Shown: positions 1 to 45,755 of the stretch, one piece after another
Layout: each line of letters opens with the position of its first letter
How positions within the stretch are numbered: the stretch's first letter is position 1
IMG/VR virus record: IMGVR_UViG_2703718845_000006
Origin: a virus
Taxonomy: Duplodnaviria; Heunggongvirae; Uroviricota; Caudoviricetes
Direction: 5' to 3' (one strand)
Length of the DNA: 45,755 nucleotides
Notes under the pieces: model-generated
Told to the model about the DNA's origin: nothing
The model's input: only the letters and a program-made list of their open reading frames with translations
Database searches by the model: none
Position numbers and translations under genes: made by a program

Positions 1-1629
1 TTGTCGCTACATGATAAATTATTAATGCATAACTTCGCATTAGCCAATAAAAAAAGCCCTGACTTCATATCTGAACTTCCTCAAATTGAACCTAAACCAT
101 ACAGCAATGGACATAAAATTAAATGGATAAACCACACACTTACTAGCACTGAAGTTACTCCCCCTGATAACCTGATTAAAATATGCATATTGATTGAGTC
201 AGGGGAAATTGCTATAACATCAGTAAGTGATATTGCCAATTTACTTGGAGTTCCTGCTGGCCAATTACTTTATATACTATATCATAAAAAAGATAATTAT
301 CGTACTTTTGAAATAGAAAAGAAGAATGGTAAAAAAAGAGTCATTAATGCTCCTTGTGGCGGTCTATCGATACTCCAAACGAGACTAAAGCCTGTTCTTG
401 AATATTTCTACAGGCCAAAGAAATCTGCTCATGGTTTTATAAAAGGAAAGAGCATCATTACTAATGCTGGGATGCATATTAAAAAAAATTTTGTCGTAAA
501 CATTGACCTAGAAAACTATTTCGAATCAATAAGTTTTGCTAGGGTTTATGGAATATTTAAAAGTAAACCTTTTAATTTTGCTCATCCAGCAGCTACTGTT
601 TTAGCTCAGTTATGTACTCACAATGGAAAATTACCTCAAGGTGCGTGTACATCGCCAATATTAGCAAATATTGCATCAGCTTCTCTAGACAAACAGCTCA
701 CCCAATTTGCAGGAAGAAAAAAAATATCTTATTCTAGGTATGCTGACGACATAACTTTTTCTTTCAATCAGAGAAATATTGATATAATCAAAAAAAACGA
801 CGACGGAAGTTATAGTCTTAGTGAAACTATAGACAATATTATTTCAAAAAATGGCTTTAAAATAAATTATGATAAATTTAGAGTTCAAACCAGAAATACA
901 AGACAAAGTGTTACTGGCTTAGTGGTTAATGATAAAGTTAACATTAACAGAAGATATATAAGAATTACACGTTCAATGATTCATAGATGGACAGATGATA
1001 AGCTAAAGTATGCACTTCTCTTTGCTACAGAAAAAGGATATCAGGCAAAGGATAATAACCACGCAATTCAAATTTTCCGAAATCATATTTATGGAAGGCT
1101 TAGCTTTATAAAAATGGTTAGAGGGAAAGACTATCCAGGATATTTAAAACTGATGTCATACATGAGTCATAACGATCCATTAAAAACCCAAGAAGGATTG
1201 CGAGCAATGAAAGAAACAGAAAACTTTGATGTTTTTATATGCCATGCAAGCGAAGACAAAAAAGGCATTGCAATTCCAATATATGACGAGTTAACTAAAC
1301 TTAAAATTTCAGCCTTCATAGATCATGTTGAGATAAAATGGGGCGACTCCTTAATTGAGAAAATAAATGCAGCACTAGTTAAATCAAAATATGTCATCGC
1401 TATTTTATCTGCTAATTCAGTCAATAAGGAATGGCCTCAAAAAGAATTAAGGGCAGTTTTAGCCAGCGAAATATCGAGTGGCGACGTAAAACTTTTGACC
1501 TTATTAAAAAAAGAAGACGAGGAGGTCGTAAACCTATCATTACCTTTACTTAGTGATAAGTATTATATGGTCTATGATAATAATCCTGAAGTAGTCGCCA
1601 ACAATATTAAATCACTCTTACAACGATAA
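1..1629 (+). CDS. Retron-type reverse transcriptase fused to a C-terminal TIR domain (RT-TIR); ORF is open to the window edge so the 5' end may be truncated
   Basis: RT motifs in translation: NAPCGGLSILQTRLKP, GFIKGKS..NIDLENYFESI, LPQGACTSPILANI, YADD at aa 247-250 (nt 739-750), retron-typical VTG at aa 304-306. C-terminal TIR-like segment FDVFICHASEDKK (aa 409-421) with W-x3-E (W478..E482). AT-rich compared with the flanking tail genes. Confidence 0.85.
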   Translation: MSLHDKLLMHNFALANKKSPDFISELPQIEPKPYSNGHKIKWINHTLTSTEVTPPDNLIKICILIESGEIAITSVSDIANLLGVPAGQLLYILYHKKDNYRTFEIEKKNGKKRVINAPCGGLSILQTRLKPVLEYFYRPKKSAHGFIKGKSIITNAGMHIKKNFVVNIDLENYFESISFARVYGIFKSKPFNFAHPAATVLAQLCTHNGKLPQGACTSPILANIASASLDKQLTQFAGRKKISYSRYADDITFSFNQRNIDIIKKNDDGSYSLSETIDNIISKNGFKINYDKFRVQTRNTRQSVTGLVVNDKVNINRRYIRITRSMIHRWTDDKLKYALLFATEKGYQAKDNNHAIQIFRNHIYGRLSFIKMVRGKDYPGYLKLMSYMSHNDPLKTQEGLRAMKETENFDVFICHASEDKKGIAIPIYDELTKLKISAFIDHVEIKWGDSLIEKINAALVKSKYVIAILSANSVNKEWPQKELRAVLASEISSGDVKLLTLLKKEDEEVVNLSLPLLSDKYYMVYDNNPEVVANNIKSLLQR

Positions 1630-22371: not shown

Positions 22372-22583
22372 CAGAACCTCGCCAGCCGATACCCGGGATG
22401 CCCCCGTCGTCGTGTAATCAGAGCCGCAAGGCGGCGCTCCCACTCCTGCCGTCCCTGCCGGATCTCAGATAAGTTTTCCATGGTCATCTGCTGACCATTA
22501 AAGGTGACGGATTTTCCGTCCAGCACCGCCATTTCAGCTTCCGTATAACGCTGAATCATGGCTTCGATATCATTCTGGTTCAT
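22371..22583 (-). CDS. W: Head-tail joining protein W-like
   Basis: ~70 aa; ...LITRRRGHPGYRLARF resembles the lambda gpW C-terminus; sits between terminase and portal. Confidence 0.7.
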   Translation of the reverse strand: MNQNDIEAMIQRYTEAEMAVLDGKSVTFNGQQMTMENLSEIRQGRQEWERRLAALITRRRGHPGYRLARF

Positions 22584-24682
22584 AACCATCCTCCGGAAGT
22601 CAGCCAGGGGTTAACATCGTCAGTTACTGTTTTCTTCCGTTTTTGTTTTTTAACAGGCGTGGATACCGGTTCCGGTGAGGATGACGGTTCGGTACTGTCC
22701 GGGACACACTCCAGCCAGGTTTCCCGGCTCGCCCACTCCGGTGCATCCGGCCAGCGGATCTTTTCGTATCCATGCAGAATGACCAGAGCCTCGGCATACA
22801 CCATCAGGTCAAAAGCTTCGTTGGCACCGCGACCCGGCTTACTCCATTTCCCGTCACTGCTCCGCTCTTCATACGTCAGTTCGTCGTAAAACCAGCTCCC
22901 CAGCCAGTCAGGGAAATGCACATAGCCGGGACCTGGCGAGTCACGCCATAACGCGTTATTCACCCGGTCTTTCAGTGCATCCGTCTGAAGAAGCCAGAGC
23001 GGCACATCACCTGCGGCCTGCGCCCGGCGGCCCGTTCGTCCGGTGTTATCAGGGAATGTACGGCTGATCAGTTTTGCGCGCCGGATGCTGTCACCCTTAA
23101 ACAGGTAAATACGTTTACCAAGGCCATCACGACGGCAACGACGCCAGAATTTATAGGCATTATCAGTGACCCCGTCTTCACCGCCGGAGTCCACCGCCAT
23201 TGCCATCAGTCGCATTTGTTGAGAAGGATCGGAGGCCAGCGGCCAGCTTTTATGAAAAACATCCGTCAGCAGGACATCCCAGTCTTCCGGGTAGCTGGCC
23301 GGATCAATTCGCTGGCTCTCCCCGTCGCAGTCACCGCGCAATGACTGCGTGATGTTGTAACGATCAATAATCCAGCGTTCGCCACGGCTGCCATAGCCCG
23401 TTACCTGAACCACAAAACGGCGATGACGTCCCGCCTGCACATCCACTGTCGCCACAAGAAAATTAACGCCATCCGGCACACTGCGGGAAGGAACTGGCTC
23501 TGCCCGCTGCTCAAGCAGTTCACTTTTTCGTTGCTCCATGCTGGCGCGGGGAAGATAAGGTAATCCCCAGTCGGTATTGATAACCGTCTTGAGTGTTTCT
23601 TCACTTCCGGTTGTCTCGTATTCCTGTTCTGCAGTAAGCAGTTTGTAAACGAGTTGCGAGAGTGTCTGGTAAGCAGCTGCCGGCCCCTCCATCCAGAATG
23701 ACGCAATACGTGAGCGTCGGGGATCACCATAACGACTGCCATCCGCATTGATGGATTCACCATCCCGCAACCAGACCCCACGTCCGTTCAGCTCACGTTT
23801 TTGTTCAGGCATAATCCGTCCTGAACAGGAAGGACACTGAATATAAGCCGCCTCACTTGCCAGAACGGGATCGGCAATATCACGGAAACCAGCAACCACA
23901 TCGCCGCAGGGCTGAAAATACTCACCACAGTGTGGACAGGGCCAGTACCAGCGACGGCGATCGCCACGGTTATAGAGCGACAGTATCCCCGTGGTTGGTG
24001 GAGCCTCATGCGGTGAAGTCCGTCGCCATTTCACATCCTTCACATCCCTGCCGGGGGAACTCTCCACCAGCGTCATACCACTGGACATAAATGTTGTGGT
24101 ACGTTTTGAGGCAAGAGAGAAAGCATCCCCCTCGCCATCAATATCTTCCGGAAAACGATCATAATCCGTCAGCGCGACGCATTTATAATCTGATGAGGAC
24201 ATGATATTGACTGACGGCCAGCCGATTTTCAGGTAGTTACCAGCAAGGAATGTTCTGTCATAAACGTTGTTGTCATTTTTGTTCGGACTCAGGCGACTGA
24301 CCACTTCCGGGCTGACGCGAAACGTTCTGGCGAGTCGTTTTTTGGAGTGTTCGCGGGCTTTTTCCTCCGTCATCTGAATAATCAGCATATCAGCAGGATC
24401 GCAAATCACGTTGTAAATCACCCAGCCGTCAATCAGGCCGATAGTCTTGCCGGTTCGTGCCGGGCCAACAAATATCACTGCGTCGTATTCACGCGAGGCC
24501 AGGCAGTTCATAGGCTCAATAACATACGGTGCCACCAGCGGATCCCACGGGACTGAGTTCCCTGCCCCCATGGGCACCCGCATATACTGAGCAACGGCAT
24601 CAGCAACCCGCATTCGTCTCGGTGCGCGAAGGATATAACCTGAATCGGTTCGTGCTGCCTTTGCGGTTTCCTGATTCAGCAT
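22580..24682 (-). CDS. Terminase large subunit (gpA-like)
   Basis: 700 aa; Walker A-like VGPARTGKT near the N-terminus; lambda-type order Nu1-A-W-portal. Confidence 0.9.
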   Translation of the reverse strand: MLNQETAKAARTDSGYILRAPRRMRVADAVAQYMRVPMGAGNSVPWDPLVAPYVIEPMNCLASREYDAVIFVGPARTGKTIGLIDGWVIYNVICDPADMLIIQMTEEKAREHSKKRLARTFRVSPEVVSRLSPNKNDNNVYDRTFLAGNYLKIGWPSVNIMSSSDYKCVALTDYDRFPEDIDGEGDAFSLASKRTTTFMSSGMTLVESSPGRDVKDVKWRRTSPHEAPPTTGILSLYNRGDRRRWYWPCPHCGEYFQPCGDVVAGFRDIADPVLASEAAYIQCPSCSGRIMPEQKRELNGRGVWLRDGESINADGSRYGDPRRSRIASFWMEGPAAAYQTLSQLVYKLLTAEQEYETTGSEETLKTVINTDWGLPYLPRASMEQRKSELLEQRAEPVPSRSVPDGVNFLVATVDVQAGRHRRFVVQVTGYGSRGERWIIDRYNITQSLRGDCDGESQRIDPASYPEDWDVLLTDVFHKSWPLASDPSQQMRLMAMAVDSGGEDGVTDNAYKFWRRCRRDGLGKRIYLFKGDSIRRAKLISRTFPDNTGRTGRRAQAAGDVPLWLLQTDALKDRVNNALWRDSPGPGYVHFPDWLGSWFYDELTYEERSSDGKWSKPGRGANEAFDLMVYAEALVILHGYEKIRWPDAPEWASRETWLECVPDSTEPSSSPEPVSTPVKKQKRKKTVTDDVNPWLTSGGWL

Positions 24683-25991: not shown

Positions 25992-26459
25992 TCATCGAAG
26001 GCATTGCGTCCTGATGTATTCCTGAAGCGTTCTCAGTGCTGTTTGGTCGCTGATGATTCCGTCCCGGATACCGAGAACGTTTCGTCCAGCAACTGGAGAG
26101 AGTTCGACGGTGGCATCATTGCCCATGCCGGAGGCGCTGGAGGTTTCGGCTGAGGATGGCACAGGGCATTTTCCTTTGACGAACACCCGACCACCATTAT
26201 CAAGCTTGCGCCGAAGAGCATCATTTTCAGCTTTCGCATCAGCTAACTCCTTCGTGTATTTAGCATCGAGTGCATCAGCAGAACGCTGGCGCTGCTGCAT
26301 GTCAGTAATGGTGGCGGTCGCCTGCTTCAGCTCACTGACTTTTTTATCTCGCTGTTCTTTGTAGGCGATGGCGTTATCACGGTAATGATTGACCGCCCAC
26401 GACAGGCAGACGATGATGCAGATAACCAGAGCGGAGATAATCGCGGTTACTCTGCTCAT
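25992..26459 (-). CDS. Rz: Rz i-spanin
   Basis: [48 protein letters not shown] is nearly identical to lambda Rz over the N-terminal half. Confidence 0.9.
26033..26239 (-). CDS. Rz1: Rz1 o-spanin lipoprotein, embedded in Rz in another frame
   Basis: [21 protein letters not shown] (lipobox VVGC) followed by a proline-rich stretch [16 protein letters not shown], entirely inside Rz. Confidence 0.8.
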
Positions 26460-26953
26460 TGTTGCCCCCACAAACAGACTTCACGCTCAATCTCACGACG
26501 AGTCATCAGGCCTTTCCATTGCTTACCGCCAGCGTATGTCCAGCGACGTAGCTGGTCACATGCGCCTTTGATATCGCCCTGGTTTATTTTGCGAAGAAGC
26601 GTCGATGTTCTGAAATTGCCAGCACCCACGTTGTAGACGAACGAGTAAAGAGCGCCGCGCGTTGTTTCCGGTATATCGACTTTGATGTACGGGTTAATTT
26701 GTCTGGCGACCGTGGCAAGGTCTTTATTCAGGAGGGCTTTGCATTCTGCTTCGGTATACGTTTTACCGAGCATGATGTCTTTTCCGGTGTGTCCGTGACA
26801 TACAGTCCATACGCCAACGATATCTTTGTATGGTATGTAGCTGACACCTTCCAGGCCATCGTCACCACTTGGGCCAGTGATTAACACTGATGCTATAGCA
26901 ATTGCTCCGCCACCAATAGCAGCAGCAACTGCTTTTCGTAATGATGGAGGCAT
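26456..26953 (-). CDS. R: SAR endolysin (phage-21-type lysozyme)
   Basis: N-terminal signal-anchor-release segment [20 protein letters not shown] followed by a lysozyme-like domain; resembles the phage 21 endolysin. Confidence 0.9.
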
Positions 26954-27168
26954 TATTCACCTCTCGCAGCCTTGCGCTTATCTTCTTTAATCTTGAAATA
27001 AAGGTTTGTCAGGTACGTCAGCAGGCCAAATACCAGGCTACCCAGCACACCTATTGCTGCCCACTGTGAGGGCGTGACTTTATCGAGCAGCTGTAAAAAC
27101 CAGTAACCGGCACTACCTGCTGAGGTGCCATAGGCGACACCCGTTGTTAACTTATCCATGGATTTCAT
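26953..27168 (-). CDS. S: Pinholin (phage-21 S-type holin)
   Basis: 71 aa, two TM segments ([13 protein letters not shown].., [17 protein letters not shown]) and a charged C-terminus; directly upstream of the SAR endolysin. Confidence 0.9.
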
Positions 27169-27204
27169 AACCCCACCTCGCAGATGCGGGTGCTGTGTAA
27201 TGGA

Positions 27205-27228
27205 AATAAAAAGGCCACCTGCGTGGCC
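27205..27228 (-). terminator. Intrinsic terminator between the methyltransferase gene and the holin gene
   Basis: Stem GGCCAC (27213-27218) / GTGGCC (27223-27228), loop CTGC, followed on the minus strand by TTTTTATTT. Confidence 0.55.
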
Positions 27229-27234
27229 ACCAGA

Positions 27235-28287
27235 TTATTTCCCCACCAGCTCGTTTATCTCTTTCACTGTCTGGTTAAACCGCTCTGACTCAAGCTCAAC
27301 ACCTAAGGCCCGACGCCCCAGCGCCATTGCTGCTTTTATTGTGGAACCGGATCCCATAAAAAAATCAGCAACCAGATCACCAGGTCGACTACTGGCATTG
27401 ATTATTTGCCTGAGCATATCCGCCGGTTTCTCACACGGATGTTTACCCGGGTAGAACTGAACGGGTTTATGCATCCAGACATCGGTATAAGGCACGGAGA
27501 CTGATACGGAGAAATAGCGCCGGAGAGATTTAAACTCATCCAGCAATTCAGAATATTTGCGATTCAGTGAATCATAAGATGCCACCAGCTGGTGGTGTGG
27601 TTGTTCCAGTTGTTGTTCCTGAAACTTCTCTGCCGCTATACGGGAAAACAGTGCCTGTAACTTCCGATAGTCAGCCTCATTCGGCAACTGCCACTGACTG
27701 GCACCAAACCAGTGGGAAACCATATTTTTCTTACCTGTGGCTTCGGCAATTTGTTTTGCCGTTATACCCAGTTCGGCACGAGCATCCCTGAAATACGATA
27801 TCAGCGGTGCCATTATGTGCTGTTTGAGTGCCCTTTCTTTTGCCGCATAGCCGTCACTTTTGCCGCGATATGGCCCCTGGTAATGTTCAGCAAACAGAAC
27901 GCGCTCTGTGGCAGGAAAATATGCGCGCAGACTTTCTTTATTACACCCATTCCAACGTCCGGACGGCTTCGCCCAGATGATATGGTTAAGCACGTTGAAA
28001 CGTTCACGCATCATGATCTCAATATCAGATGCCAGGCGATGCCCACAGAACAGGTAAAGGCTTCCGGCAGGTTTCAACACCCGCCAGAACTGGGCCAGAC
28101 AGTGGTCCAGCCACTTAAGGTAATCTTCGTCCCCTTTCCACTGATTGTCCCAACCGTTGGGTTTCACCTTGAAGTAAGGCGGATCGGTAACAATCAGGTC
28201 AATGGAATCATCAGGCAGGGACTGAATAAAATGCAGGCAATCAGCGTTGATTAAATCAACACTGTTTATTTTTACAGTATTTTTCAT
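27235..28287 (-). CDS. DNA methyltransferase, beta class (N6-adenine or N4-cytosine; YhdJ-like)
   Basis: DPPY motif (IVTDPPYF) near the N-terminus and AdoMet-binding FFMGSGST near the C-terminus (motif IV before I). Confidence 0.85.
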   Translation of the reverse strand: MKNTVKINSVDLINADCLHFIQSLPDDSIDLIVTDPPYFKVKPNGWDNQWKGDEDYLKWLDHCLAQFWRVLKPAGSLYLFCGHRLASDIEIMMRERFNVLNHIIWAKPSGRWNGCNKESLRAYFPATERVLFAEHYQGPYRGKSDGYAAKERALKQHIMAPLISYFRDARAELGITAKQIAEATGKKNMVSHWFGASQWQLPNEADYRKLQALFSRIAAEKFQEQQLEQPHHQLVASYDSLNRKYSELLDEFKSLRRYFSVSVSVPYTDVWMHKPVQFYPGKHPCEKPADMLRQIINASSRPGDLVADFFMGSGSTIKAAMALGRRALGVELESERFNQTVKEINELVGK

Positions 28288-28436
28288 GGATCAGTAAGCG
28301 TAACTCTGGTAGGCTCACTCTGCTTTTGCGCTAAAGCAGTGGGCCGTGGTTCGCTTGTGACCAGTAAGCATGAGCGAATGGCTGGCAGGTGCTACCAACA
28401 CCCACCAGCCGCCCATTTTCACAAATTAAAAGTCCT

Positions 28437-28655
28437 TCATTGCTGAAGGCGTCTGTAACAGCCGAACTGGTAATCTGCCAGCCCCGCCATAACCAACTGG
28501 GTCAGTATTAACTGACAGCGTTCGCGTGAAAGATATGTGTTTTGTGCAATCTCCCCGACTGTTGCCGGTTCGATGCTTAATTCATTAAAAACAACTTTCG
28601 CCGTTTCTGTCATATCTTGCTGTTTTAGCATGTCTTTTTTCCTTCTGGTTAACAT
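28437..28655 (-). CDS. Small hypothetical protein (possible winged-helix DNA-binding protein); start uncertain
   Basis: 72-aa ORF between the tR'-like terminator and the methyltransferase gene; TVGEIAQNTYLSRERCQLILTQLVMAGLA looks HTH-like. Confidence 0.4.
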   Translation of the reverse strand: MLTRRKKDMLKQQDMTETAKVVFNELSIEPATVGEIAQNTYLSRERCQLILTQLVMAGLADYQFGCYRRLQQ

Positions 28656-28752
28656 GACATACCAATAACTCTTGTCTAAAAAGCCAGCAAGATAAAAAGT
28701 CAGTATTCACGACCACCAGCGTGTTTACCGTACTGCACCAGGTTTACAGGTA

Positions 28753-28779
28753 CAAAAAAACCCGCTCGACGGCGGGTTT
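28753..28779 (-). terminator. Strong intrinsic terminator on the minus strand, upstream of the lysis-proximal genes (tR'-like)
   Basis: Stem ACCCGC / GCGGGT (28760-28777) followed on the minus strand by seven U (complement of AAAAAAA at 28753-28759). Confidence 0.7.
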
Positions 28780-28834
28780 AAGTTGTGTGGCGAAGTAACC
28801 ACTCTTAACACAATACAATACTTTTTGCGTACGC

Positions 28835-28863
28835 GTTATAGTTTTCTTACAATCAACTTTCAA
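28835..28863 (-). promoter_or_regulatory. Candidate sigma70 promoter on the minus strand (possible late promoter), back-to-back with the start of the DUF262 gene
   Basis: Minus strand reads TTGAAA - 17 bp - TATAAC (rc of plus 28858-28863 and 28835-28840), about 60 nt upstream of the terminator at 28753-28779. Confidence 0.3.
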
Positions 28864-28879
28864 TTAAAGGAACGAAAAC

Positions 28880-30040
28880 ATGACTACACTCAAAGAACTC
28901 AAAGAAGAGCTTGCTCAGATACAAGATGAACACGCTAAGAACAGAAAAAAGGCTGAAATTGCAGCTTTAACCGCTTCCGCTGACAATGAAATCAGACTCG
29001 CTCAGAGAAACATTGGATACAATGTACGTGAGTGGACCGTTGAAGTCATTATTCAAAAGTATGGTGATAATATTGAAAATGACAAAAACGAGCTTTTTAT
29101 TCCAGATTATCAACGTGATTACAAGTGGGATACAAAAACAGCCTCTCGCTTTATAGAAAGTATTCTATTAGACTTTCCAATACCTTACCTTTACATTGCT
29201 GATGTATTTAATGAAGACCCTGAATTAGATGGTAGGGTAGAAATCATTGATGGTTCACAACGGATACGCTCTATTTATTATTTTTGGAACGATCAATTTG
29301 AGTTAAAGGATTTGAAAGAGCTTAAAAGTTTAGAAGGTTTCAAATTTTCAGATCTTTTAGCTAGCCGCCAAAGAAGATTTTTAAGAGCTTCACTAAGATT
29401 TATTGAGTTGAAAGGTGATGTTGAGGAACAACATAGAAGAGATTTATTTGAAAGGATCAACTCAGGTGTTAAAAGATTAGAAGCGATGGAAGTGAGGCAT
29501 GGCTCAGATGCTGCTACCTCAATGTTCTATAAAGATGTTGTGACCCCATGCTCAACAAACTCACTTTTTTCCCAACTAGCTCCATTATCAGACCGGAAAC
29601 GGTCGAATGGCGATCATCGTGAGTTAGTTTTGAGATTTTTTGCATATTTAAATGATTTAGAAAACTATAAGGGATTTGTCCGTCCCTTTATTGATAATTA
29701 TTTAAATGAACAAGCAGCAGCTGTGACTACTCAACAAGATGTTGATAATTTTAAACATGATTTTGAAATGATGCTTGCTTTTGTTGCTACCCATTTCCCT
29801 ATTGGCTTTAAAAAGACCGCAACAAGTAAAACCACCCCACGAGCCAGATACGAAGCCATTGCCGTGGGAACTGCACTTGCATTAAAAACTAACCCACAAC
29901 TCCAGAGTCCAGCCGTACCTGTAGGTGAATGGCTATTTGAAGAGGAATTTGAAACACTTGTTACTGCTGATAGTGCAAACAATACCAGCCAGCTAAAAAA
30001 CAGAATCTTTTACGTTAAAAATAAGTTGTTAGGGATTTAA
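28880..30040 (+). CDS. DUF262 (ParB-like nuclease/NTPase, GmrS-like) domain protein, 386 aa
   Basis: IPDYQRDYKW and DGSQR (aa 124-128, nt 29249-29263) match the DUF262 signature; AAGGAA RBS 8 nt before the ATG; AT-rich; no DUF1524/HNH-like C-terminal domain recognised. Confidence 0.85.
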   Translation: MTTLKELKEELAQIQDEHAKNRKKAEIAALTASADNEIRLAQRNIGYNVREWTVEVIIQKYGDNIENDKNELFIPDYQRDYKWDTKTASRFIESILLDFPIPYLYIADVFNEDPELDGRVEIIDGSQRIRSIYYFWNDQFELKDLKELKSLEGFKFSDLLASRQRRFLRASLRFIELKGDVEEQHRRDLFERINSGVKRLEAMEVRHGSDAATSMFYKDVVTPCSTNSLFSQLAPLSDRKRSNGDHRELVLRFFAYLNDLENYKGFVRPFIDNYLNEQAAAVTTQQDVDNFKHDFEMMLAFVATHFPIGFKKTATSKTTPRARYEAIAVGTALALKTNPQLQSPAVPVGEWLFEEEFETLVTADSANNTSQLKNRIFYVKNKLLGI

Positions 30041-30042
30041 AA

Positions 30043-30732
30043 ATGAGTCTAATTGATTTACGAGATGAATATGAAGAAAGAGCAAGAGACATTATGGAAC
30101 TGCTTTCTCTTGCATCATCTATAGAGATTCATACTCAGCAGTTAGATCCGCAAGCGCATCAAGATGAAATAGAATCTAATATCCTAAGGGTAAATATTTT
30201 AAAATCATCCGTTCATATGATGCTATATAATCAAGTTGAAAATACTGCCAGAGGTTGCATCGAGTCAATTTATGATCATTTACAAGATAATGAGGTGAAT
30301 TACGCATCACTCAGGGAGAAGCTTCAAGTAAATATATTACATAGAATTGTTTCAGATAATGAAACAGGGCAATCCCTTTATAAAAAGATAGGCACTGACA
30401 TTTCCAAAAGAATAATTTCAGCCTCATTGAATATTCGTAAAGAATTCAATGGTAATGTTTGCAAGCCTGTATTACACAAAATAACGCAGGCTTACGGAAT
30501 AACTATCGCAAACTCACCTGAATGTAGAAATGGTATTGACTTAGACTTGCTTAAGGATATCAGAAACGAACTCGCGCATGGAAGTACTAGCTTCTCTAAA
30601 AAGGGGCAAATTGACCCCTTAGAAGAAGTTAAGTCTAGAGCAGAGAGAGTTGATCTATATCTTCGTTTATTAATAAACTCAACTGAAGATTATATTATCT
30701 CTAACGGATATTTATCCCCTCAACATGCCTAA
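30043..30732 (+). CDS. HEPN-like protein (putative nuclease), 229 aa, translationally coupled to the DUF262 gene
   Basis: Starts 2 nt after the DUF262 stop; R-x4-H motif RNELAH at aa 174-179 (nt 30562-30579) in a predicted helical protein; 3' end overlaps the convergent methyltransferase gene by about 32 bp. Confidence 0.75.
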   Translation: MSLIDLRDEYEERARDIMELLSLASSIEIHTQQLDPQAHQDEIESNILRVNILKSSVHMMLYNQVENTARGCIESIYDHLQDNEVNYASLREKLQVNILHRIVSDNETGQSLYKKIGTDISKRIISASLNIRKEFNGNVCKPVLHKITQAYGITIANSPECRNGIDLDLLKDIRNELAHGSTSFSKKGQIDPLEEVKSRAERVDLYLRLLINSTEDYIISNGYLSPQHA

Positions 30733-31741
30733 CAAACGTTCTCCCTATTACTTGGCCAATTATAGGGGGAACAGCATTACCAATCATCGTTCCTAACTTT
30801 TGGAATGAAAAAGGCGTATTTTTTCCAATAAATTTATAATCCATAGGAAAAGATTGTAAAATAGCAGCTTCACGCAAAGTTATTGCTCTATTTTGCTCAG
30901 GATGTCCGAATCGCCCATTACCATATCCATAACATTGGGTAGTTATTGTAGGACTAGTATCGTCCCAAACCATCCGTCCATAAACACTTTTATAGGTAGC
31001 ACCTGAATGCTTTTTATGGCAATCCGCTCTAATTTCTTCAGGCCAATCATCCCACGTACCACCTGGTAAAGAGTGCAAGATTCGTTTAAGGTTAATATCC
31101 CTTAATTTAGGCGAACGATGCAATGGATCACTTTCGAGTTTCTCCCCTGCACCTATTTTTGGCAACTGACCAATAGCATCCTTTACTGTAACTTTACGGC
31201 TTACTTTTTTTTGATCAAGGCTGATTGGCCCCAATATGGACCCAATTAGAATTAATCTACGTCTATTTTGAGGCAAGCCATACTCGGAACATTTTACAAC
31301 GTCGTACCACAGATGATACCCAAGAGTCTTTAATACACTAACAAACTCTTCAAAAACCTTATGATTTCTAAGTTGAGGAACATTTTCCATAGTCACAAGC
31401 TCTGGCATGACATCACTTACAATCCTCTGAAACTCAGATAAAAGACGCCACTTTGTATCATCTTTTCTGCTATTTGGATTACGATACTTGGAAAACGGTT
31501 GGCAAGGGGCACAGCCTGCAAGTAATCTAATATTTCCTTCCTTGAACATAGCAGACACATCGCTGGATTGCAGTTCAGTAACTGACTGGTTAATGAACTT
31601 CGTTAAGGGATTATTGCTCTCAATAGCGAAACGGCAGGACTCATCAATATCAATGCCATGAGAAACTTCAATCCCGGCTTTTTTTAGCCCAAAAGTTAAG
31701 CCCCCTGCGCCACAAAAAATGTCTACTGCTTGAATGTTCAC
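30701..31741 (-). CDS. DNA (cytosine-5) methyltransferase
   Basis: Motif I FCGAGG, motif IV GCAPCQPFS (PCQ), motif VI ENV, motif VIII QNRRR, motif X GNAVPP; GTG start with GGAGA RBS; a TATAAT hexamer lies in the 80-bp gap after Q. Confidence 0.9.
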   Translation of the reverse strand: MNIQAVDIFCGAGGLTFGLKKAGIEVSHGIDIDESCRFAIESNNPLTKFINQSVTELQSSDVSAMFKEGNIRLLAGCAPCQPFSKYRNPNSRKDDTKWRLLSEFQRIVSDVMPELVTMENVPQLRNHKVFEEFVSVLKTLGYHLWYDVVKCSEYGLPQNRRRLILIGSILGPISLDQKKVSRKVTVKDAIGQLPKIGAGEKLESDPLHRSPKLRDINLKRILHSLPGGTWDDWPEEIRADCHKKHSGATYKSVYGRMVWDDTSPTITTQCYGYGNGRFGHPEQNRAITLREAAILQSFPMDYKFIGKNTPFSFQKLGTMIGNAVPPIIGQVIGRTFVRHVEGINIR

Positions 31742-31820
31742 AAGATTCTCCGTTACTTTACCCTGGTATTATATACACATAAAAGTTGGGAAAGTAGAAT
31801 GATTTTACATAGCACTTAAC

Positions 31821-32189
31821 TCATTGTATTAAATAAAAAAATGACAAGCATCCATCAATAAACCCCATAGCTGTTTGCATATCTTTTCGAACTGTTCCGT
31901 CTGAACATTTCCGCTTCTTTGCAATTGTACGGAGCGAAATGCCAACAACAAAGTGAGCAATTATCAGCTCATACTCTGCCGGCTTGTATTTACGCAACCT
32001 AGCGACACAACCGTCTATTATGATGCCCTCATCATCATCGCACTGAATCCGGGACTTTCTGCCATGAGGTAAAAGCCGCTTGAAGCCAGCAGCTACCGGT
32101 TGCCAGTCCACACCACTGTTTTCTGCAGCAGCCCATGCCCCCCAGCGGTCCAAAACTTCATACATATCACGCATCAACTTTCTCCACAA
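31821..32189 (-). CDS. Q: Late-gene antitermination protein Q (Phage_antitermQ family)
   Basis: 122 aa; VLDRWGAWAAA..DWQPVAAGFKRLLP..IQCDDDEG.IIDGCVARL..CSDGTV pattern of the small Q family found in E. coli prophages (as recalled). Confidence 0.85.
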   Translation of the reverse strand: MWRKLMRDMYEVLDRWGAWAAAENSGVDWQPVAAGFKRLLPHGRKSRIQCDDDEGIIIDGCVARLRKYKPAEYELIIAHFVVGISLRTIAKKRKCSDGTVRKDMQTAMGFIDGCLSFFYLIQ

Positions 32190-32191
32190 AA

Positions 32192-33187
32192 TCAGGCCAG
32201 CACGCCAATTGCCAGCGCACGATCGATAAAACGAAATATCAGCTCCAGCTGGGAACCATACTTCTCTTCAAATGCCACGGTATCCGCATGCAGCTCGTCG
32301 TGATGCTTTCTGCACAAAGGCAACACAAAGAGGTCATGCGCTTTTGTACCCATTCCCCCCTGACCGTGGCCTATCAGGTGGTGGGGATCATCAGCAGGCT
32401 TTCCACAACATGCACACGGCTGTGTCTTAACCCAGCGTGTGTACTTTTCATTAACCCAGCGGCGACGTTTTGGGCGTAACATAAAAGACTCCGGCGACTC
32501 CGGATCCACTTTCAGCGCCAGCACATTTTTCGCCTTATCCTGGATGATGCTGGTGGCAGGAACCGAAGGCACAAGGTCACTTTCCCGGGTGACAGACGGC
32601 ACAACAGGCTTCGGTAATCTCAGTGCCTTACGGGCTGCACTTTCCGGTAAGGCATCCGCCAGGTCATTACGAATCAGCCACCAGCACAGTTCCGGCATTG
32701 TCACAACGTGACTGTCATCAAAACCGAGATCCCGACGCACAACAGACAACACCCAGCGGGCACAGTTATCCGTTGCCATTGATTCCAGCCGTTCCGTGAA
32801 CTGATCACGCAGCTGGTTATCGCAGTGCCAGCACAGACGGATTGCGCCCGGCGCGTGTCGCATTGTGGTCATGTTCTCGCTGTGCCAATCGGAATGAGGC
32901 CACTGGCAGCCTTTTTCACGAAGTAACCAGCTTTCAAGACATTCCACGCCACCAGCACGACGGATCACTGCCTCATTGCGGAACACGGCCCGAACGGCAG
33001 GATCATCCGCCAGCGGTTGTGATGCCGCCGGAACGGCACCACTGGCGAAAGATGAATAACGTTCCGGCTCAGGCTCCAGCAGGACACGCCCCTGCATAAA
33101 CAGGGGCATCAGCTCTGAACCTGGCCTGAACAATACGATCCCCATACGCGGGGCAATTTCAGGGGTCAGTAATGCTCTCACGGTCAC
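32192..33187 (-). CDS. DUF968 (YdfU-like) nin-region protein
   Basis: 331 aa; C-terminal Cys/His cluster (CACCGKPADDPHHL..HD..LPLCRKHHDELH); position next to Q. Confidence 0.7.
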   Translation of the reverse strand: MTVRALLTPEIAPRMGIVLFRPGSELMPLFMQGRVLLEPEPERYSSFASGAVPAASQPLADDPAVRAVFRNEAVIRRAGGVECLESWLLREKGCQWPHSDWHSENMTTMRHAPGAIRLCWHCDNQLRDQFTERLESMATDNCARWVLSVVRRDLGFDDSHVVTMPELCWWLIRNDLADALPESAARKALRLPKPVVPSVTRESDLVPSVPATSIIQDKAKNVLALKVDPESPESFMLRPKRRRWVNEKYTRWVKTQPCACCGKPADDPHHLIGHGQGGMGTKAHDLFVLPLCRKHHDELHADTVAFEEKYGSQLELIFRFIDRALAIGVLA

Positions 33188-33188
33188 C

Positions 33189-33998
33189 TCAATGAACGGT
33201 ATCGAGCAGCTTTAACAGCTCAGGGAATCGGGATTCGAAGAAATGCGGCTGCGTCTCGCGCGGATTTGCGGGACTGGTGATGTTCTTGCCGAACATGCAA
33301 CCTTTCGCTGTCAGCGACCAGAATTTTTTGATGTTGTTAATCGCAGTACGACTGTATCGTTCGCGCTGCTCGACGATCCCCAGTTTCACCATCTGGTGAT
33401 ATGCCTGATTAGCCGTCAGGCGGATACCATACTGTTTCAGCAGTGCACTCAGCGACAGCGTAGGGCGACTTGAGCCATCAGGCGCGTCAGCAGGAGCATC
33501 AATGGCATAGCGCGGTGCCAGATTCGGTAAGCCAACAGCCTCCTGGAGTTTCTGACAGGCACCAAGCACTGAAGAGTTAGACAGGTTTAACTCCCTGCGC
33601 ATAAAGTCCAGCAGAATCACTCCAGCCTGCATCTTGTCAGCAGCCTGCCCGGATAATTTTTCCGGTGCGCTGGTTACCATATCGAAAGTACGGATCACCT
33701 TCAGATGGAATGACGGGCTGATCCACATTGCATAGGCATACACCAGTTCTTTGCAGACATACGTCCCCTGGTTATTTCCGCCATTAATGACGCTAACTGG
33801 TTGATTTTGTTCCAGAGGCGGAATTCCACCCTCGGTGAAAAGTTGTTCAATCAATTCACAGGTTTGCTTATTGGAGAGCCAGTATTTCGGGCGGTTTTTT
33901 TGTTCTCCCCCGGCTGCCCTGTGCAGATCGTTCAGGCTGTAACGCCCATAAGCATCACGACGAACTTCAATACCATCAATAACCATCAGATTATTCAT
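33189..33998 (-). CDS. KilA-N domain protein
   Basis: N-terminal MVIDGIEVRRDAYGRYSLNDLHRAAGG...YWLSNKQTCELIEQL...YVCKELVYAYAMWISPSFHLKVIRTF fits the KilA-N pattern. Confidence 0.75.
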   Translation of the reverse strand: MNNLMVIDGIEVRRDAYGRYSLNDLHRAAGGEQKNRPKYWLSNKQTCELIEQLFTEGGIPPLEQNQPVSVINGGNNQGTYVCKELVYAYAMWISPSFHLKVIRTFDMVTSAPEKLSGQAADKMQAGVILLDFMRRELNLSNSSVLGACQKLQEAVGLPNLAPRYAIDAPADAPDGSSRPTLSLSALLKQYGIRLTANQAYHQMVKLGIVEQRERYSRTAINNIKKFWSLTAKGCMFGKNITSPANPRETQPHFFESRFPELLKLLDTVH

Positions 33999-34017
33999 AC
34001 TTCGTTTCTCCTCTTAA

Positions 34018-34407
34018 TCAGGCGGCTGCACCCGCCGGTTTCTCATACTTACTGATAGTGATCTCGACCTTCCCTTTCGGGATAACCGGTCCCCACTCCA
34101 CCAGCATTCTTTTCACCTGTCTGTCGTCTTCCCACACACCCGCGTGGGTCAGGGCGTCAAACAGCGCCTTGTTATAGTTGTCCAGATCGCGGATCCGGTT
34201 ATCCGGAGGAAACAACACGATCTCCACTGAAGCAGGTGCCGACGTTGGTTTTGGCAGACGACGTAACTGCTCAACTATTGCTGCGCACGCCGCGCTCTGA
34301 AATTTTCGCCCCGCCGCGCTTATCAGGCTCTTACCAGCAAATGCCCCTTTGTTGGGGTGTCGCCAGTAGGTGTTCACGCTGGGCGGGAAAGGCAGGATCA
34401 GCTTCAT
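34018..34407 (-). CDS. rusA: RusA-family Holliday junction resolvase
   Basis: 129 aa; FPPSVNTYWR...RIRDLDNYNKALFDALTHAGVWEDDRQV matches the RusA catalytic core. Confidence 0.9.
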   Translation of the reverse strand: MKLILPFPPSVNTYWRHPNKGAFAGKSLISAAGRKFQSAACAAIVEQLRRLPKPTSAPASVEIVLFPPDNRIRDLDNYNKALFDALTHAGVWEDDRQVKRMLVEWGPVIPKGKVEITISKYEKPAGAAA

Positions 34408-34730
34408 ACTTTCAGGCCTCTCTCATGTAACCAGTGAGTTGCACGCAGCCTTGCGTTTTCCTCACCGGCAAGCAGTGAGCGGATAATCCCGACCGCCTCG
34501 CTGTCGTCGTCCTTCACCGCGGTATGAAGCGTGATCCCCCGGGCCACACCACGCTTTATCGTGATGACGCCTTTTTTCTCCAGTGCGCGAAGATGCTCCA
34601 CCGCTGCATTCACCGAACGGTATCCCAGCATGGTTGCCACCTCCTGATTGGTTGGCGGGAAGCCACGCTCTTTCTGATAAGAAATCAGCATATCCAGCAC
34701 CTGCTGCTGGCATTGAGTTAACGTCGTCAT
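34404..34730 (-). CDS. Stand-alone LexA-type N-terminal DNA-binding domain protein (no peptidase domain)
   Basis: LTQCQQQVLDMLISYQKERGFPPTNQEVATMLGYRSVNAAVEHLRALEKKGVITIKRGVARGITL parallels the LexA winged-helix domain; 108 aa with no S24 Ser/Lys dyad. Confidence 0.7.
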   Translation of the reverse strand: MTTLTQCQQQVLDMLISYQKERGFPPTNQEVATMLGYRSVNAAVEHLRALEKKGVITIKRGVARGITLHTAVKDDDSEAVGIIRSLLAGEENARLRATHWLHERGLKV

Positions 34731-35380
34731 GCCGCCATCTCCCTGACCAGCTTTTCCGCCTGCAGGCGAACCTGCGCCAGAAACGCCTCACCACATGCCT
34801 CAAGTTCATCGCGCCCGATGTAGCTGATTGCCGGTCCCTTCCAGGTCTTGTCGAAAACAGCAATAGCACCAGCGAAGAAAGCGCCTGTCGGCACCTGCTT
34901 CTCATCCTTCGGGATAAACCAGGCAGGCAGTTCAAAACCAATACGCCCGCGAATAAAAGCAATATGATCTGCATCTTCCGGCCACCACACTTCGCTGGTG
35001 GCAGCTTTGATCAGGAAAACATAGCGCCCGCCCTTATCACGCATGGCACTGGCATGCTTCATGATGTAACGCATGCCGGTGATGTATTGCCCCTCATGCT
35101 GACTGGCGCGGCTGTATGGGGGATTTCCAAAGGCAGCACCTTTAAGCTCCGCAAGGCGTTCTGACCAGTCATGCGCCAGCGCGTTGTCTTCCGCCGTGTA
35201 ATACGCAGCACATTTGGCGTTATCACCGTCAGTGAACAGATCCAGAACAAACGGACCAAACAGGGTGTTAATTCCCCAGAAAATGTTGTCCGGCGTGCGC
35301 CACTGATCGCCCACTTCCTTCAGTTCATGGGCTGGTTTGTTCCGCAGTTCCACCAGCTCCTGGCAATATTTATTACTCAT
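34727..35380 (-). CDS. Phage-type DNA N6-adenine methyltransferase (Dam-like)
   Basis: W.TPDNIFWGINTLFGPFVLDLF...GNPPYS (NPPY motif); start taken at MSNKYCQ. Confidence 0.85.
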   Translation of the reverse strand: MSNKYCQELVELRNKPAHELKEVGDQWRTPDNIFWGINTLFGPFVLDLFTDGDNAKCAAYYTAEDNALAHDWSERLAELKGAAFGNPPYSRASQHEGQYITGMRYIMKHASAMRDKGGRYVFLIKAATSEVWWPEDADHIAFIRGRIGFELPAWFIPKDEKQVPTGAFFAGAIAVFDKTWKGPAISYIGRDELEACGEAFLAQVRLQAEKLVREMAA

Positions 35381-35874
35381 TAAGCCCCCACGTAATTCCC
35401 TGACAGATACCACTCATCACCCGATACAGCGCGCTTGCTGCTTTTCCGTAAACACTGCTCACGACGCGCCAGAAAATTGTTTCGTTCTGGCTGGGAGTGG
35501 CTTTCACGGAATGCCGCCATCCACACCGTTGCAGCACGACGGTATAAGCCCCTGGACTCCAGTTCTTCAGCCTGGCGGGTCAGGCATAAAATCTCCCGCG
35601 GGTCGTTAGTGCCGACATAGAAATTGCGCACAGGTCTGGTTTCACGAACTGGTTGCCGTTCCGCCTCCGGCGATATCTTTGTCTGGCGCGGGAAATGTCT
35701 GCGTGTATCCCCTTCACAACGGTGAGCCACACGCCCACTCTGACGTAACTTGCTTGCTGACTGCAGAACGCGCTGCCGTGAGTAACCTGCAAAAGCATCC
35801 GCAATGTCTCCGGAAGTACACCCCGGATGGGCTTCAATGAATTTCTGAACTTCATTCAAAAGACTCATGATCAC
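35380..35874 (-). CDS. Putative PerC-family transcriptional regulator
   Basis: LESRGLYRRAATVWMAAF resembles the PerC signature; 164 aa downstream of the replication gene. Confidence 0.45.
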   Translation of the reverse strand: MIMSLLNEVQKFIEAHPGCTSGDIADAFAGYSRQRVLQSASKLRQSGRVAHRCEGDTRRHFPRQTKISPEAERQPVRETRPVRNFYVGTNDPREILCLTRQAEELESRGLYRRAATVWMAAFRESHSQPERNNFLARREQCLRKSSKRAVSGDEWYLSGNYVGA

Positions 35875-38956: not shown

Positions 38957-39649
38957 ATGAACATAGGAAACCGAGTCAGACAACTTCGCCAGGCGAAGAA
39001 CATGAAAATCGCCGATCTCGCTGAAGCAATAGGAGTGGATGCGGCGAATATCTCACGCCTGGAAACAGGTAAGCAGAAACAATTCACTGAACAAGCCCTG
39101 AGTAATATTGCCAGGAGCTTAGGTGTTGATATTGCTGATCTCTTTACCTCAGACGTCAAAAGTAATACTGTATGTAAAAACAGTATTAGTGAGGATGTTG
39201 CGCAGGTGAAGGATGTATTCCGTATTGAAATGCTGGATGTCAGTGCCAGTGCGGGAAATGGCCTTATCCAGGGCGGTGATGTCATTGATGTGATTCATGC
39301 CATTGAATACAGAACTGATAATGCTGTATCGATGTTTGGCGGACGGCCAGCCAATCACATTAAAGTTATCAACGTTCGTGGGGACAGTATGTGTCCAACC
39401 ATTGAGCCAGGAGATCTCATCTTCGTTGATGTCAGTATCAATCAGTTTGATGGAGATGGTATCTATGTATTTGGTTTTGATGATAAAATTTATGTCAAAC
39501 GACTGCAAATGATACCTGACAAACTACTGGTGATTTCTGATAACCAGATTTACCGTGAATGGGGAATTACCAGCGAAAATGAACACCGGTTTATGGTCTT
39601 TGGAAAGGTCTTAATCAGCCAGTCACAAACCCTTAAGCGACACAATTAA
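38957..39649 (+). CDS. cI: CI-type prophage repressor (HTH + S24 LexA-like autopeptidase domain)
   Basis: N-terminal HTH VRQLRQAKNMKIADLAEAIGVDAANISRLETG; C-terminal S24 domain with GDSM and a downstream Lys (VKRL). Confidence 0.9.
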   Translation: MNIGNRVRQLRQAKNMKIADLAEAIGVDAANISRLETGKQKQFTEQALSNIARSLGVDIADLFTSDVKSNTVCKNSISEDVAQVKDVFRIEMLDVSASAGNGLIQGGDVIDVIHAIEYRTDNAVSMFGGRPANHIKVINVRGDSMCPTIEPGDLIFVDVSINQFDGDGIYVFGFDDKIYVKRLQMIPDKLLVISDNQIYREWGITSENEHRFMVFGKVLISQSQTLKRHN

Positions 39650-44531: not shown

Positions 44532-45755
44532 TCAGTTGGGGTCTGAGCTAGCACAAGTAATGATCGATTCAACCCTCTCCCACCACGCCTGGTAGGCTTT
44601 ACGCTGTTCTTCTAGATAATCGCTCTTGTCATAAACCTGCCAAACCCCTGGCAGTTTATGGCCGAGCATTATTTCTGCAATATGAGGAGCAGTAAGATCA
44701 GAAAAGTTTGTTCGTGCTGTTCGCCTCAAATCATGAAGAGACCAATGAGGGAATTGATACCCCAAACTCCGCCATGCGTACTGCATTAAATTGTAAGGCA
44801 GCGACTGCAATGATGTTCGACCAACGGGTTCCCTGCTTCCTTCCTTAGTAAAAAGCATATCGGAACCATTGTTCATAGAGATAGCGTTCTTTATAAGCTC
44901 CTCCACCGGTTCAATAATGGGCCTCTTTAGCGGTTCGCCTGTTATCTCCCCAGTCTTATGTCGTTCTGGTGGTACAGTCCATACCTTATTAATGAAATCA
45001 AAATCGTCCACCCTGGCAGTAATTAGCTCTGAACTACGGCAGCCAAAATGCAGCAATAGCTTAATGAAGGCCCGGTATTTAGGAACCATTCGAGAACCAT
45101 CGATCGCAGCATAAAGGATTTTAATTTCATCATGTGTCAGAAACCGTTTCTTCTGACCTTTACGGATATCCATATCTTTACCCGTGATATCCGACAGCGG
45201 GCGAGTTTCAATGAGCTTTCTCTTATACGCCCAGACATGGGCCTGCTTTGCGTTAATTAGCAATCGGTCTGCTATTGCTGGAGTCTTAGTGCTAAGAGGC
45301 TCCAGGACTTCTAACCAATCATGCAATGTAGCTGCATCGTGAGGGATATTCCCGATTTTAGAGAACAGGTGCAGCTCAAACGAGCGGAGTATCTGTTCAG
45401 AACCTTTTTTATTTTTTACACAATATGCTTCATACCAGGCACGGATCACAGACTCTACCGTCATGGCTTCAGTAGCTTTTCGTTTTTCAGCCTGCTTGAC
45501 AAATCGTGGATTACGGTTTGACTCAAGTTCACCACGGAGACGAATAACTTCTTCTCTGGCCTCTTTTAATCCAGTTGCCGGGTAAGTTCCGATATCAAGA
45601 CGCTCACCTTTCCCTGCCCATTGATAACGATATTGGAACACTACGCGACCTTTCGGTGATACTCTGACAGACAGACCATCACGATCGGATTTAACCAAAA
45701 CCTTATCACGTTCCTTTCCAACGACTGAACGCAACCACGCATCAGACAGCGCCAT
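44532..45755 (-). CDS. int: Tyrosine integrase, P4-like (N-terminal arm-binding DUF4102-like domain + catalytic domain)
   Basis: N-terminus MALSDAWLRSV..VFQYRYQWAGKGERLDIGTYP resembles P4-type integrases; catalytic region has R (HFGCRSSE), H-x-x-R (HDLRRTART) and a C-terminal Tyr region (WQVYDKSDY); the ATG is at the last base of the window. Confidence 0.9.
   Translation of the reverse strand: MALSDAWLRSVVGKERDKVLVKSDRDGLSVRVSPKGRVVFQYRYQWAGKGERLDIGTYPATGLKEAREEVIRLRGELESNRNPRFVKQAEKRKATEAMTVESVIRAWYEAYCVKNKKGSEQILRSFELHLFSKIGNIPHDAATLHDWLEVLEPLSTKTPAIADRLLINAKQAHVWAYKRKLIETRPLSDITGKDMDIRKGQKKRFLTHDEIKILYAAIDGSRMVPKYRAFIKLLLHFGCRSSELITARVDDFDFINKVWTVPPERHKTGEITGEPLKRPIIEPVEELIKNAISMNNGSDMLFTKEGSREPVGRTSLQSLPYNLMQYAWRSLGYQFPHWSLHDLRRTARTNFSDLTAPHIAEIMLGHKLPGVWQVYDKSDYLEEQRKAYQAWWERVESIITCASSDPN

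Follow-up and report, generated by a model that had tools for sequence, protein, structure and literature searches.

Why does a single lambdoid prophage carry DNA methyltransferases of three different classes, when a recognisable classical restriction endonuclease gene adjoins none of them? The question is raised by positions 27,235–35,380 of IMGVR_UViG_2703718845_000006, a stretch of 45,755 nt given on one strand from 5′ to 3′ (the whole stretch is called the window below). A first-pass annotation had placed a beta-class enzyme, a C5-cytosine enzyme and a Dam-like enzyme in this region without an obvious cognate endonuclease, and had taken them for multiple orphan enzymes protecting the phage against restriction; a partnership with a neighbouring DUF262-HEPN gene pair was the last alternative it listed, after epigenetic regulation. 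All three enzymes (27235–28287, 30701–31741 and 34727–35380) were recovered as intact open reading frames (ORFs) at exactly these coordinates, matched their family models and kept their catalytic motifs (DPPY, PCQ/ENV and NPPY, respectively), and the statement on the endonuclease also stood. The orphan interpretation suits the beta-class and Dam-like enzymes but not the C5 enzyme, which is linked to the DUF262-HEPN pair. Three methyltransferases in one lambdoid prophage are unremarkable in themselves. The beta-class and Dam-like enzymes are of ordinary, known kinds and the C5 enzyme belongs to a conserved, methylase-carrying variant of DUF262-HEPN. The three enzymes thus probably divide into two roles, with two solitary lytic-phase enzymes and one cassette methylase.

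The C5 gene is part of a low-GC cassette of three genes (28780–31820). Its right neighbour is the antiterminator gene Q (31821–32189, minus strand; PF06530, E 5.4e-46), and its left edge is an intrinsic terminator (28758–28779, minus strand) with an 8-bp GC-rich stem followed by a T run. This terminator is homologous to the post-Q terminator of phage SfV: the homology to SfV stops at 28778, at the ‘putative rho-independent terminator’ annotated after Q in that phage. SfV has no genes between Q and the terminator, and in phage cdtI this interval is occupied by another, counter-oriented cassette of two genes. The site is therefore a variable hotspot, and the three genes of the window are a moron carried there. 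The cdtI cassette (L089:3580–4968) consists of orf54 (313 aa) and orf53 (147 aa), both unannotated. The GC content of the cassette in the window was 0.32–0.42, against about 0.48–0.55 in its flanks. No direct repeats or other insertion scars were found flanking it.

The first gene of the cassette (28880–30040, plus strand) encodes a DUF262 protein of 386 aa, a GmrSD_N or ParB-type NTPase (PF03235, E 5.8e-26; GmrSD_N at aa 66–206). Its motifs PDYQRDYKW (aa 75–83) and DGSQR (aa 124–128) were both conserved in an alignment of 40 sequences, and DG.QR was present in 14/14 loci checked. Among the PADLOC profiles, it matched NsnA (E 5.9e-45, 152 bits, residues 14–315) better than PD-T4-2_A (E 4.6e-27, 93 bits), which suggests the NsnA architecture, in which a ParB-DUF262 part is joined to a DNA-binding C-terminal domain. 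A Pfam scan detected no DUF1524 domain in this protein or in the neighbouring ones. The second gene (30043–30732, plus strand) encodes a HEPN protein of 229 aa from the MAE_28990 family (PF18737, E 2.9e-17, 64 bits vs a cutoff of 26.8; PF18735, E 1.4e-7). Its Rx4H motif, RNELAH (aa 174–179), was invariant in one alignment (A1) and read RN(D/E)LAH in distant loci.

The third gene, on the minus strand, encodes the C5-cytosine DNA methyltransferase of 346 aa (PF00145 DNA_methylase, E 2.7e-54, aa 4–335; TIGR00675, 120 bits). The enzyme has the motifs FCGAGG (aa 9–14), PCQ (aa 79–81; 31499–31507), ENV (aa 119–121), QNRRR (aa 158–162) and GNAVP (aa 321–325), and matched the PADLOC profiles MTase_II (E 1.2e-88) and DrmMII (E 7.7e-85). 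The gene is convergent with the HEPN gene, overlapping it by 32 bp, and follows Q in the same orientation after a gap of 80 bp. A relationship to Dcm (CCWGG), which would account for the tolerated loss of the methylase in some loci, was considered and rejected, as K-12 Dcm aligned in the catalytic core only (27% over 196 aa). The target-recognition regions had no similarity, so the specificity of the C5 enzyme cannot be inferred from Dcm.

The three genes travel together. A 2.9-kb query covering the cassette matched 107 of 5426 complete E. coli genomes, each of which held at least 80% of the query. Two variants were distinguished, one at ≥99% identity (34 genomes) and one at about 87% (73 genomes); the latter was found in ST131 strains, where the prophage backbone differs and the position is unchanged. 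HEPN homologues with 57% and 42% identity, one from Yersinia and the other from Pseudoalteromonas, had the same three-gene layout. The Yersinia cassette was located in a lambdoid prophage between Q and holin, and that of Pseudoalteromonas in a Tn7-like transposon, adjoining tnsCDE. A Klebsiella plasmid record also carried the cassette.

The linkage extends across phyla. In a scan of distant loci with one genome per species (80 loci, of which 76 were assessable and 4 were cut by contig ends), covering Cyanobacteria, Proteobacteria, Collinsella, Bacteroidota, Verrucomicrobia, Planctomycetes, Actinomycetes and others, the HEPN proteins shared 23–37% identity with that of the window over the best aligned segment. 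The DUF262 gene was directly upstream of the HEPN gene in 80/80 loci. An adjacent C5 methylase was present in 67/76 (88%), in 64 cases an orthologue (45–57% identity) and in 3 another C5 enzyme. Three gene orders occurred: the methylase gene was convergent in 39 loci, downstream and co-directional in 13, and upstream in 10. Adjacency was thus kept through rearrangement, which is strong evidence of functional coupling. We found no conserved fourth gene: the 103 flanking ORFs scanned contained 118 Pfam families, each in at most 4 ORFs. Since the immediate flanking genes were mutually unrelated, the unit consists of the three genes only. A defence-island setting was not found at the distant loci, whose flanks were heterogeneous and mostly of housekeeping type.

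All three genes were also present in 52/52 assessable viral contigs, retrieved from IMG/VR via the HEPN protein. The viral loci occupied the lambdoid Q-lysis position (25), the P2 gpA-portal hotspot (17) or other places (11). The C5 gene adjoined Q in the same orientation in 25/25 lambdoid loci. In lambdoid and P2-like phages alike, the methylase gene was co-oriented with the upstream early gene (Q or gpA) and the DUF262-HEPN pair pointed the opposite way. When sequenced phages were searched by DNA similarity, the cassette was unmatched and the backbone flank alone found matches; a protein search of phages retrieved relatives of the cassette in the P2-like phage P24B2 and in Moraxella phages. 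In Peduovirus P24B2 (L091:1994–3041), the cassette methylase is split by a frameshift that falls among eight consecutive G. The frameshift may reflect an error of sequencing, gene decay or a tract that slips easily and acts as a switch; this phage was left out of the count of methylase-less loci. With co-inheritance in E. coli, in phage contigs and across phyla in three gene orders, the partnership that the first-pass annotation had ranked last became the best-founded of its proposals: the C5 enzyme is the modification gene of a conserved mobile cassette and not an orphan.

The gene association itself has been known since 2013. Table 1 of Anantharaman et al. 2013 gives the MAE_28990 HEPN operon type as ParB nuclease, HEPN and DNA methylase, and the order in the window, with DUF262 followed by HEPN and a convergent C5 gene, fits this type. 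That survey alone names the MAE_28990 family within the searchable library of literature, the paper on P2/P4 hotspots does not mention the cassette, and RefSeq annotates the cassette genes separately. Only a methylase-less relative, PD-T4-2, has been experimentally tested.

The methylase is the most conserved of the three proteins. Median identity of the distant loci to the window proteins fell from 51% (methylase) to 41% (DUF262) and 26% (HEPN). Within the methylase, the target-recognition region between motifs VIII and IX was the best-conserved part, so a fixed specificity across phyla is likely. In a reciprocal search, 80 viral contigs were collected via the C5 methylase. The gene neighboured DUF262-HEPN in 48 of them, a GHKL-ATPase gene in 19, class-1 DISARM in 5 and none of these in 8. 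The GHKL-ATPase partner (HATPase_c_3, approximately 650 aa) matched PADLOC REase_II (PDLC03419, ‘Type II restriction enzyme’) over its whole length; at least 9 of its loci (e.g. L109:6047–8002, L148:6036–8033) lay beside P2 gpA, 5 of these with the portal gene too. One GHKL-ATPase member had a weakly Shedu-nuclease-like C-terminus. The DISARM-linked methylase genes (L144, L147, L151, L152 and L162) were located directly upstream of DrmD and DrmMI, from which a Vsr-like gene separated one of them; the C5 family thus doubles as DrmMII of DISARM.

Across the four neighbour groups the target-recognition region was equally conserved, with approximately 0.62 identity to the window. One methylase family, probably of one specificity, thus swaps partners as a module, with at least three different restriction-type modules as neighbours. 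Such a pattern would be expected of a self-marking enzyme and not of a free-standing anti-restriction gene. In class-1 DISARM of Serratia, DrmMII methylates MTCGAK, and the joint methylation by DrmMI and DrmMII is an off switch. The MTCGAK motif offers a lead to the sequence that the C5 family may recognise.

These observations led us to hypothesize that the cassette is most likely an anti-phage defence resembling restriction-modification (R-M). The C5 enzyme would place a fixed 5-methylcytosine (5mC) mark on the resident chromosome, including the prophage, and the DUF262/ParB-type NTPase, with its predicted DNA-binding C-terminal part, would scan DNA for sites where the mark is missing. An encounter of the DUF262 protein with incoming unmarked DNA would license the HEPN Rx4H nuclease, which would then halt the infection, most likely by cutting RNA. 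Upon induction, read-through of the Q operon would raise the methylase level and, as the layout implies, run antisense to DUF262-HEPN, sparing the progeny of the prophage itself. In its general form the idea is more tentative, and we put it forward as possible: an R-M-type system with no DNA endonuclease arm, in which unmethylated foreign DNA leads to RNA cleavage by HEPN and abortive infection, combined with a shared C5 self mark, possibly of TCGA type. A single methylase family with a fixed target-recognition region would make this mark, and at least three unrelated effector modules (DUF262-HEPN, GHKL-ATPase nuclease and DISARM) would read it.

Several points weigh against this model. The HEPN enzymes characterised so far are, to our knowledge, RNases, and the sensing of DNA would have to be coupled to such an RNase. 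The HEPN protein of the window had no PADLOC match, including to PD-T4-2_B, beyond a weak one to RTasHEPN (E 0.019, with an E limit of 10). A consensus scan for promoters of the cassette genes gave no more hits than shuffled sequence, none of them convincing; the 80-bp spacer between Q and the C5 gene contained a TATAAT hexamer and nothing else convincing. No experimental study of the three-gene cassette was found, and its RefSeq protein accessions were not mentioned in the literature searched. Loci lacking the methylase also exist: the remainder of the 76 assessable distant loci had a methylase remnant (1) or no methylase (8), and IncF plasmids carried a DUF262-HEPN pair with no annotated methylase. 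The Aphanizomenon locus L018 had no methylase, yet its DUF262 and HEPN proteins kept their motifs and shared 97% and 91% identity, respectively, with their counterparts in the three-gene locus L026 of Dolichospermum. PD-T4-2 is both active and tolerated in the absence of a methylase, and deletion of methylases in class-1 DISARM did not cause autoimmunity. In view of the methylase-less pairs, PD-T4-2 and the non-autoimmune DISARM deletions, methylation may tune the system and not strictly protect from it, or an unlinked methylase may substitute. As a separate observation, the Aphanizomenon and Dolichospermum loci (L018 compared with L026, L021 and L015) formed a decay series with the intact triad, a methylase remnant and clean loss next to glyS, in which DUF262 and HEPN were full-length with intact motifs throughout.

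The strongest alternative is that DUF262-HEPN works on its own as a sensor-effector of the PD-T4-2 or type IV kind, triggered by features of phage DNA such as hypermodified cytosines, with the C5 enzyme as an accessory that restrains self-activation, wards off other restriction systems or provides an additional layer of defence, rather than defining self. PD-T4-2, a DUF262 and HEPN pair from E. coli ECOR65 with no methylase, is protective against T4 in the strain of origin and also after cloning (Vassallo et al. 2022). DUF262 is the sensor NTPase that reads DNA modification in GmrSD and SspE, methylase-less pairs persist with their motifs intact, and in DISARM the class-1 methylases are dispensable for avoiding autoimmunity, DrmMII alone having had anti-phage effects. 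We nevertheless consider this alternative doubtful: a C5 gene whose target-recognition region is the same and conserved stays adjacent in 88% of the assessable loci, members of this methylase family are also partners of other restriction-type modules, and a sensor attacking 5mC would be incompatible with a C5 methylase next to it.

Alternatively, the cassette might mainly be an addiction module, in which HEPN is the toxin for post-segregational killing, methylation the antidote and defence a side effect. Many toxin-antitoxin systems have a HEPN domain as their toxin, the cassette is carried by prophages, plasmids and a Tn7-like element, and a convergent, overlapping layout is common in addiction-like Type II R-M systems. 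Methylase loss with intact DUF262-HEPN has, however, been tolerated in several lineages, and the presence of the cassette in anti-phage hotspots already known from P2-like and lambdoid prophages points to defence, making addiction as the main function an improbable explanation. That all three methyltransferases are independent orphan anti-restriction or epigenetic genes beside an unrelated DUF262-HEPN moron is very unlikely: no classical restriction endonuclease fold is found beside any of them, the C5 family stood alone in 8/80 viral contigs and several methylases per lambdoid phage are often seen, but the C5 and DUF262-HEPN genes are adjacent in non-phage contexts, in three orders and across phyla, were kept together in 107/107 matching E. 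coli genomes and 52/52 assessable viral contigs, and share a 32-bp coding overlap.

If R-M-like defence is indeed the function, PD-T4-2-type DUF262-HEPN systems, validated but mechanistically obscure, would be tied to self-recognition by methylation, and one methylase family would serve as an interchangeable self-marking module for several effectors. The cassette is a widespread, compact and apparently uncharacterised candidate of defence type that 2% of the complete E. coli genomes carry, ST131 among them, and that occurs in many phyla; it is cargo of two known prophage defence hotspots. Annotation pipelines that label the C5 gene as an orphan ‘DNA cytosine methyltransferase’ overlook what is probably an obstacle, in clinical lineages of E. 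coli, to phage infection and the transfer of DNA.

The beta-class enzyme (27235–28287, minus strand) is a 350-aa N6-adenine (N6/N4) methyltransferase of the M.EcoGI/M.EcoGII family. It matched Pfam N6_N4_Mtase (PF01555, E 2.4e-42) over aa 29–341, with DPPY at aa 35–38 (28174–28185) and the FxGxG motif ‘FMGSG’ at aa 310–314. M.EcoMV of prophage Phi4 in strain EC958, which served as a proxy for M.EcoGII in the sequence comparison, aligned without gaps over 348 aa with 82% identity and 91% positives. According to the ST131 methylome paper, M.EcoMV is 99% identical to M.EcoGI; M.EcoGI and M.EcoGII are in turn identical at 333/349 positions, and M.EcoGII is a non-specific adenine methyltransferase, reported to be prophage-borne, silent in the lysogen and harmful under constitutive expression. 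The accession of M.EcoGII was not among the displayed members of the 90% cluster of the window enzyme, which was 99.7% identical to orf56 of phage cdtI and 80–85% identical to the ‘DNA methylase’ of Stx2 phages.

The order Q, terminator, small ORF, methylase and holin is common to the window, SfV, cdtI and EC958 Phi4. The small ORF (28437–28655, minus strand), which lies outside the cassette, is a backbone gene homologous to SfV orf47 and conserved with SfV, cdtI and phiP27; its winged-helix signal was weak (DprA_WH/TrmB matches below the cutoff). In the late regions of SfV/cdtI/Stx type, the beta-class gene was always located between this small winged helix-turn-helix (wHTH) ORF and the holin gene, and a nuclease partner was absent. 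It is thus a true solitary backbone gene of these late regions, and its position, downstream of the SfV-type post-Q terminator and just ahead of holin, implies expression with the late genes. Homology to M.EcoGI and M.EcoGII suggests that it may methylate without sequence specificity and stay silent in the lysogen; an identity of only 82% to M.EcoMV does not establish non-specificity.

The Dam-like gene (34727–35380, minus strand) encodes a phage N6-adenine methyltransferase of 217 aa. Both Pfam Dam (PF05869, E 1.2e-45, 156 bits vs a cutoff of 28) and the NCBIfam equivalog model TIGR01712 ‘phage_N6A_met’ (255 bits vs a cutoff of 97) matched it, and NPPY was present at aa 86–89. The mechanical ORF list gave a GTG start at 35413, and the first-pass annotation used the ATG at 35380. 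The start at 35380 is preferred, because the family models began to align at residue 12–14 and the exact 217-aa protein occurs on at least 1000 public contigs. The gene lies in the early-right region between LexA-like and PerC-like genes. The Dam-like gene is absent from the closest E. coli prophages, where the PerC-like gene comes straight after the LexA-like one; these prophages covered 92% of an 8.5-kb query, the shortfall corresponding approximately to the length of the Dam-like gene. The gene is thus a solitary 654-bp insertion/indel whose start and stop codons overlap both neighbours. Its product shared 25% identity (E 4e-10) with the DNA methyltransferase of phage T1 (ST20, T1 Dam), which modifies GATC. 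At this identity the GATC specificity is not transferable to the Dam-like enzyme.

Both solitary genes lie inside lytic-phase operons, and the two enzymes would most likely methylate replicating phage DNA before packaging. Progeny methylated in this way would escape restriction in the next host.

The window as a whole is a lambdoid prophage on the minus strand. Tail genes and then terminase (22580–24682) make up its left part, and the lysis genes (25992–27168) lie left of the methylase region. Right of Q, a ‘nin’-type region with DUF968, KilA-N, RusA and LexA-like genes precedes the replication genes, to the right of which are a cI-like repressor gene (38957–39649) and, at the right end, the integrase gene (44532–45755). 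The DUF968 protein (32192–33187, minus strand), encoded directly upstream of Q, has an HNH-like C-terminal part (HNHc_6, E 4.6e-6). Its gene is common in lambdoids, with the homologous SfV orf45 annotated as an HNH endonuclease, and is present in EC958 Phi4 too; we therefore do not count it as a methylase partner.

Each of the five proteins of the region had an exact match among public sequences, and the three methyltransferases occurred on hundreds to thousands of contigs. As a block, positions 27,000–35,500 were not covered above 92% in one place in any of the 5426 complete E. coli genomes; the exact trio of methylases is a rare mosaic of which each part is common. Beyond the tail-fibre end of the prophage, an ORF open at the window start (1–1629, plus strand) encodes a reverse transcriptase fused to TIR (RVT_1, E 3e-19; TIR_2, E 4e-18) in a stretch of very low GC content (0.32–0.35). 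By its make-up it resembles a retron/DRT-like defence gene, which would make it a second moron of this type.

Among known enzymes, the closest counterparts of the beta-class enzyme are M.EcoGI and M.EcoGII, with which it shares its class, its length (349–350 aa), the N-terminal DPPY, the C-terminal FxGxG and the position in a prophage between Q and the lysis genes; in contrast to the members of that group, it is 82% and not >95% identical. The Dam-like enzyme belongs to the same family as the T1/HP1-type Dam enzymes by curated models, has NPPY and is detectably homologous to the T1 enzyme, but differs from the latter in that the identity is merely 25%.

For the cassette, the C5 enzyme provides the likeness to DISARM and to the systems with a GHKL ‘REase’, through its matches to DrmMII and MTase_II. 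In contrast to these systems, the window has no DrmA, DrmB, DrmC or DrmD and no GHKL protein among the ORFs listed or scanned; no DrmA/B/C-like genes were found next to the C5 gene, the scanned ORFs of at least 140 aa being structural, lysis, regulatory and recombination genes. GmrSD, BrxU and SspE share with the cassette an N-terminal DUF262 NTPase domain with DGxQR, but the cassette lacks their DUF1524 His-Me nuclease domain. Whereas they attack modified DNA or read phosphorothioate, the C5 partner in the cassette implies tolerance of its own 5mC.

Menshen (NsnABC) resembles the cassette in its DUF262 component, the DUF262 protein of the window matching the NsnA profile over residues 14–315. 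The survey describing Menshen noted methylase-associated loci where DUF262 ‘may target non-modified genomes’. Unlike Menshen, the cassette has no NsnB ABC-ATPase and no NsnC effector and carries a separate MAE_28990-type HEPN protein instead. PD-T4-2 is organised like the first two genes of the cassette, with a DUF262 gene followed by an adjacent HEPN gene. We consider the cassette a relative of PD-T4-2 and not a member of it, since its HEPN protein is unmatched, as are the HEPN homologues of P2 phages and plasmids, which likewise had no PD-T4-2_B match in PADLOC, and its DUF262 protein fits NsnA better. PD-T4-2 is approximately 1.5 kb long and was cloned and active without a methylase, whereas the near-constant third gene of the cassette is the C5 methylase.

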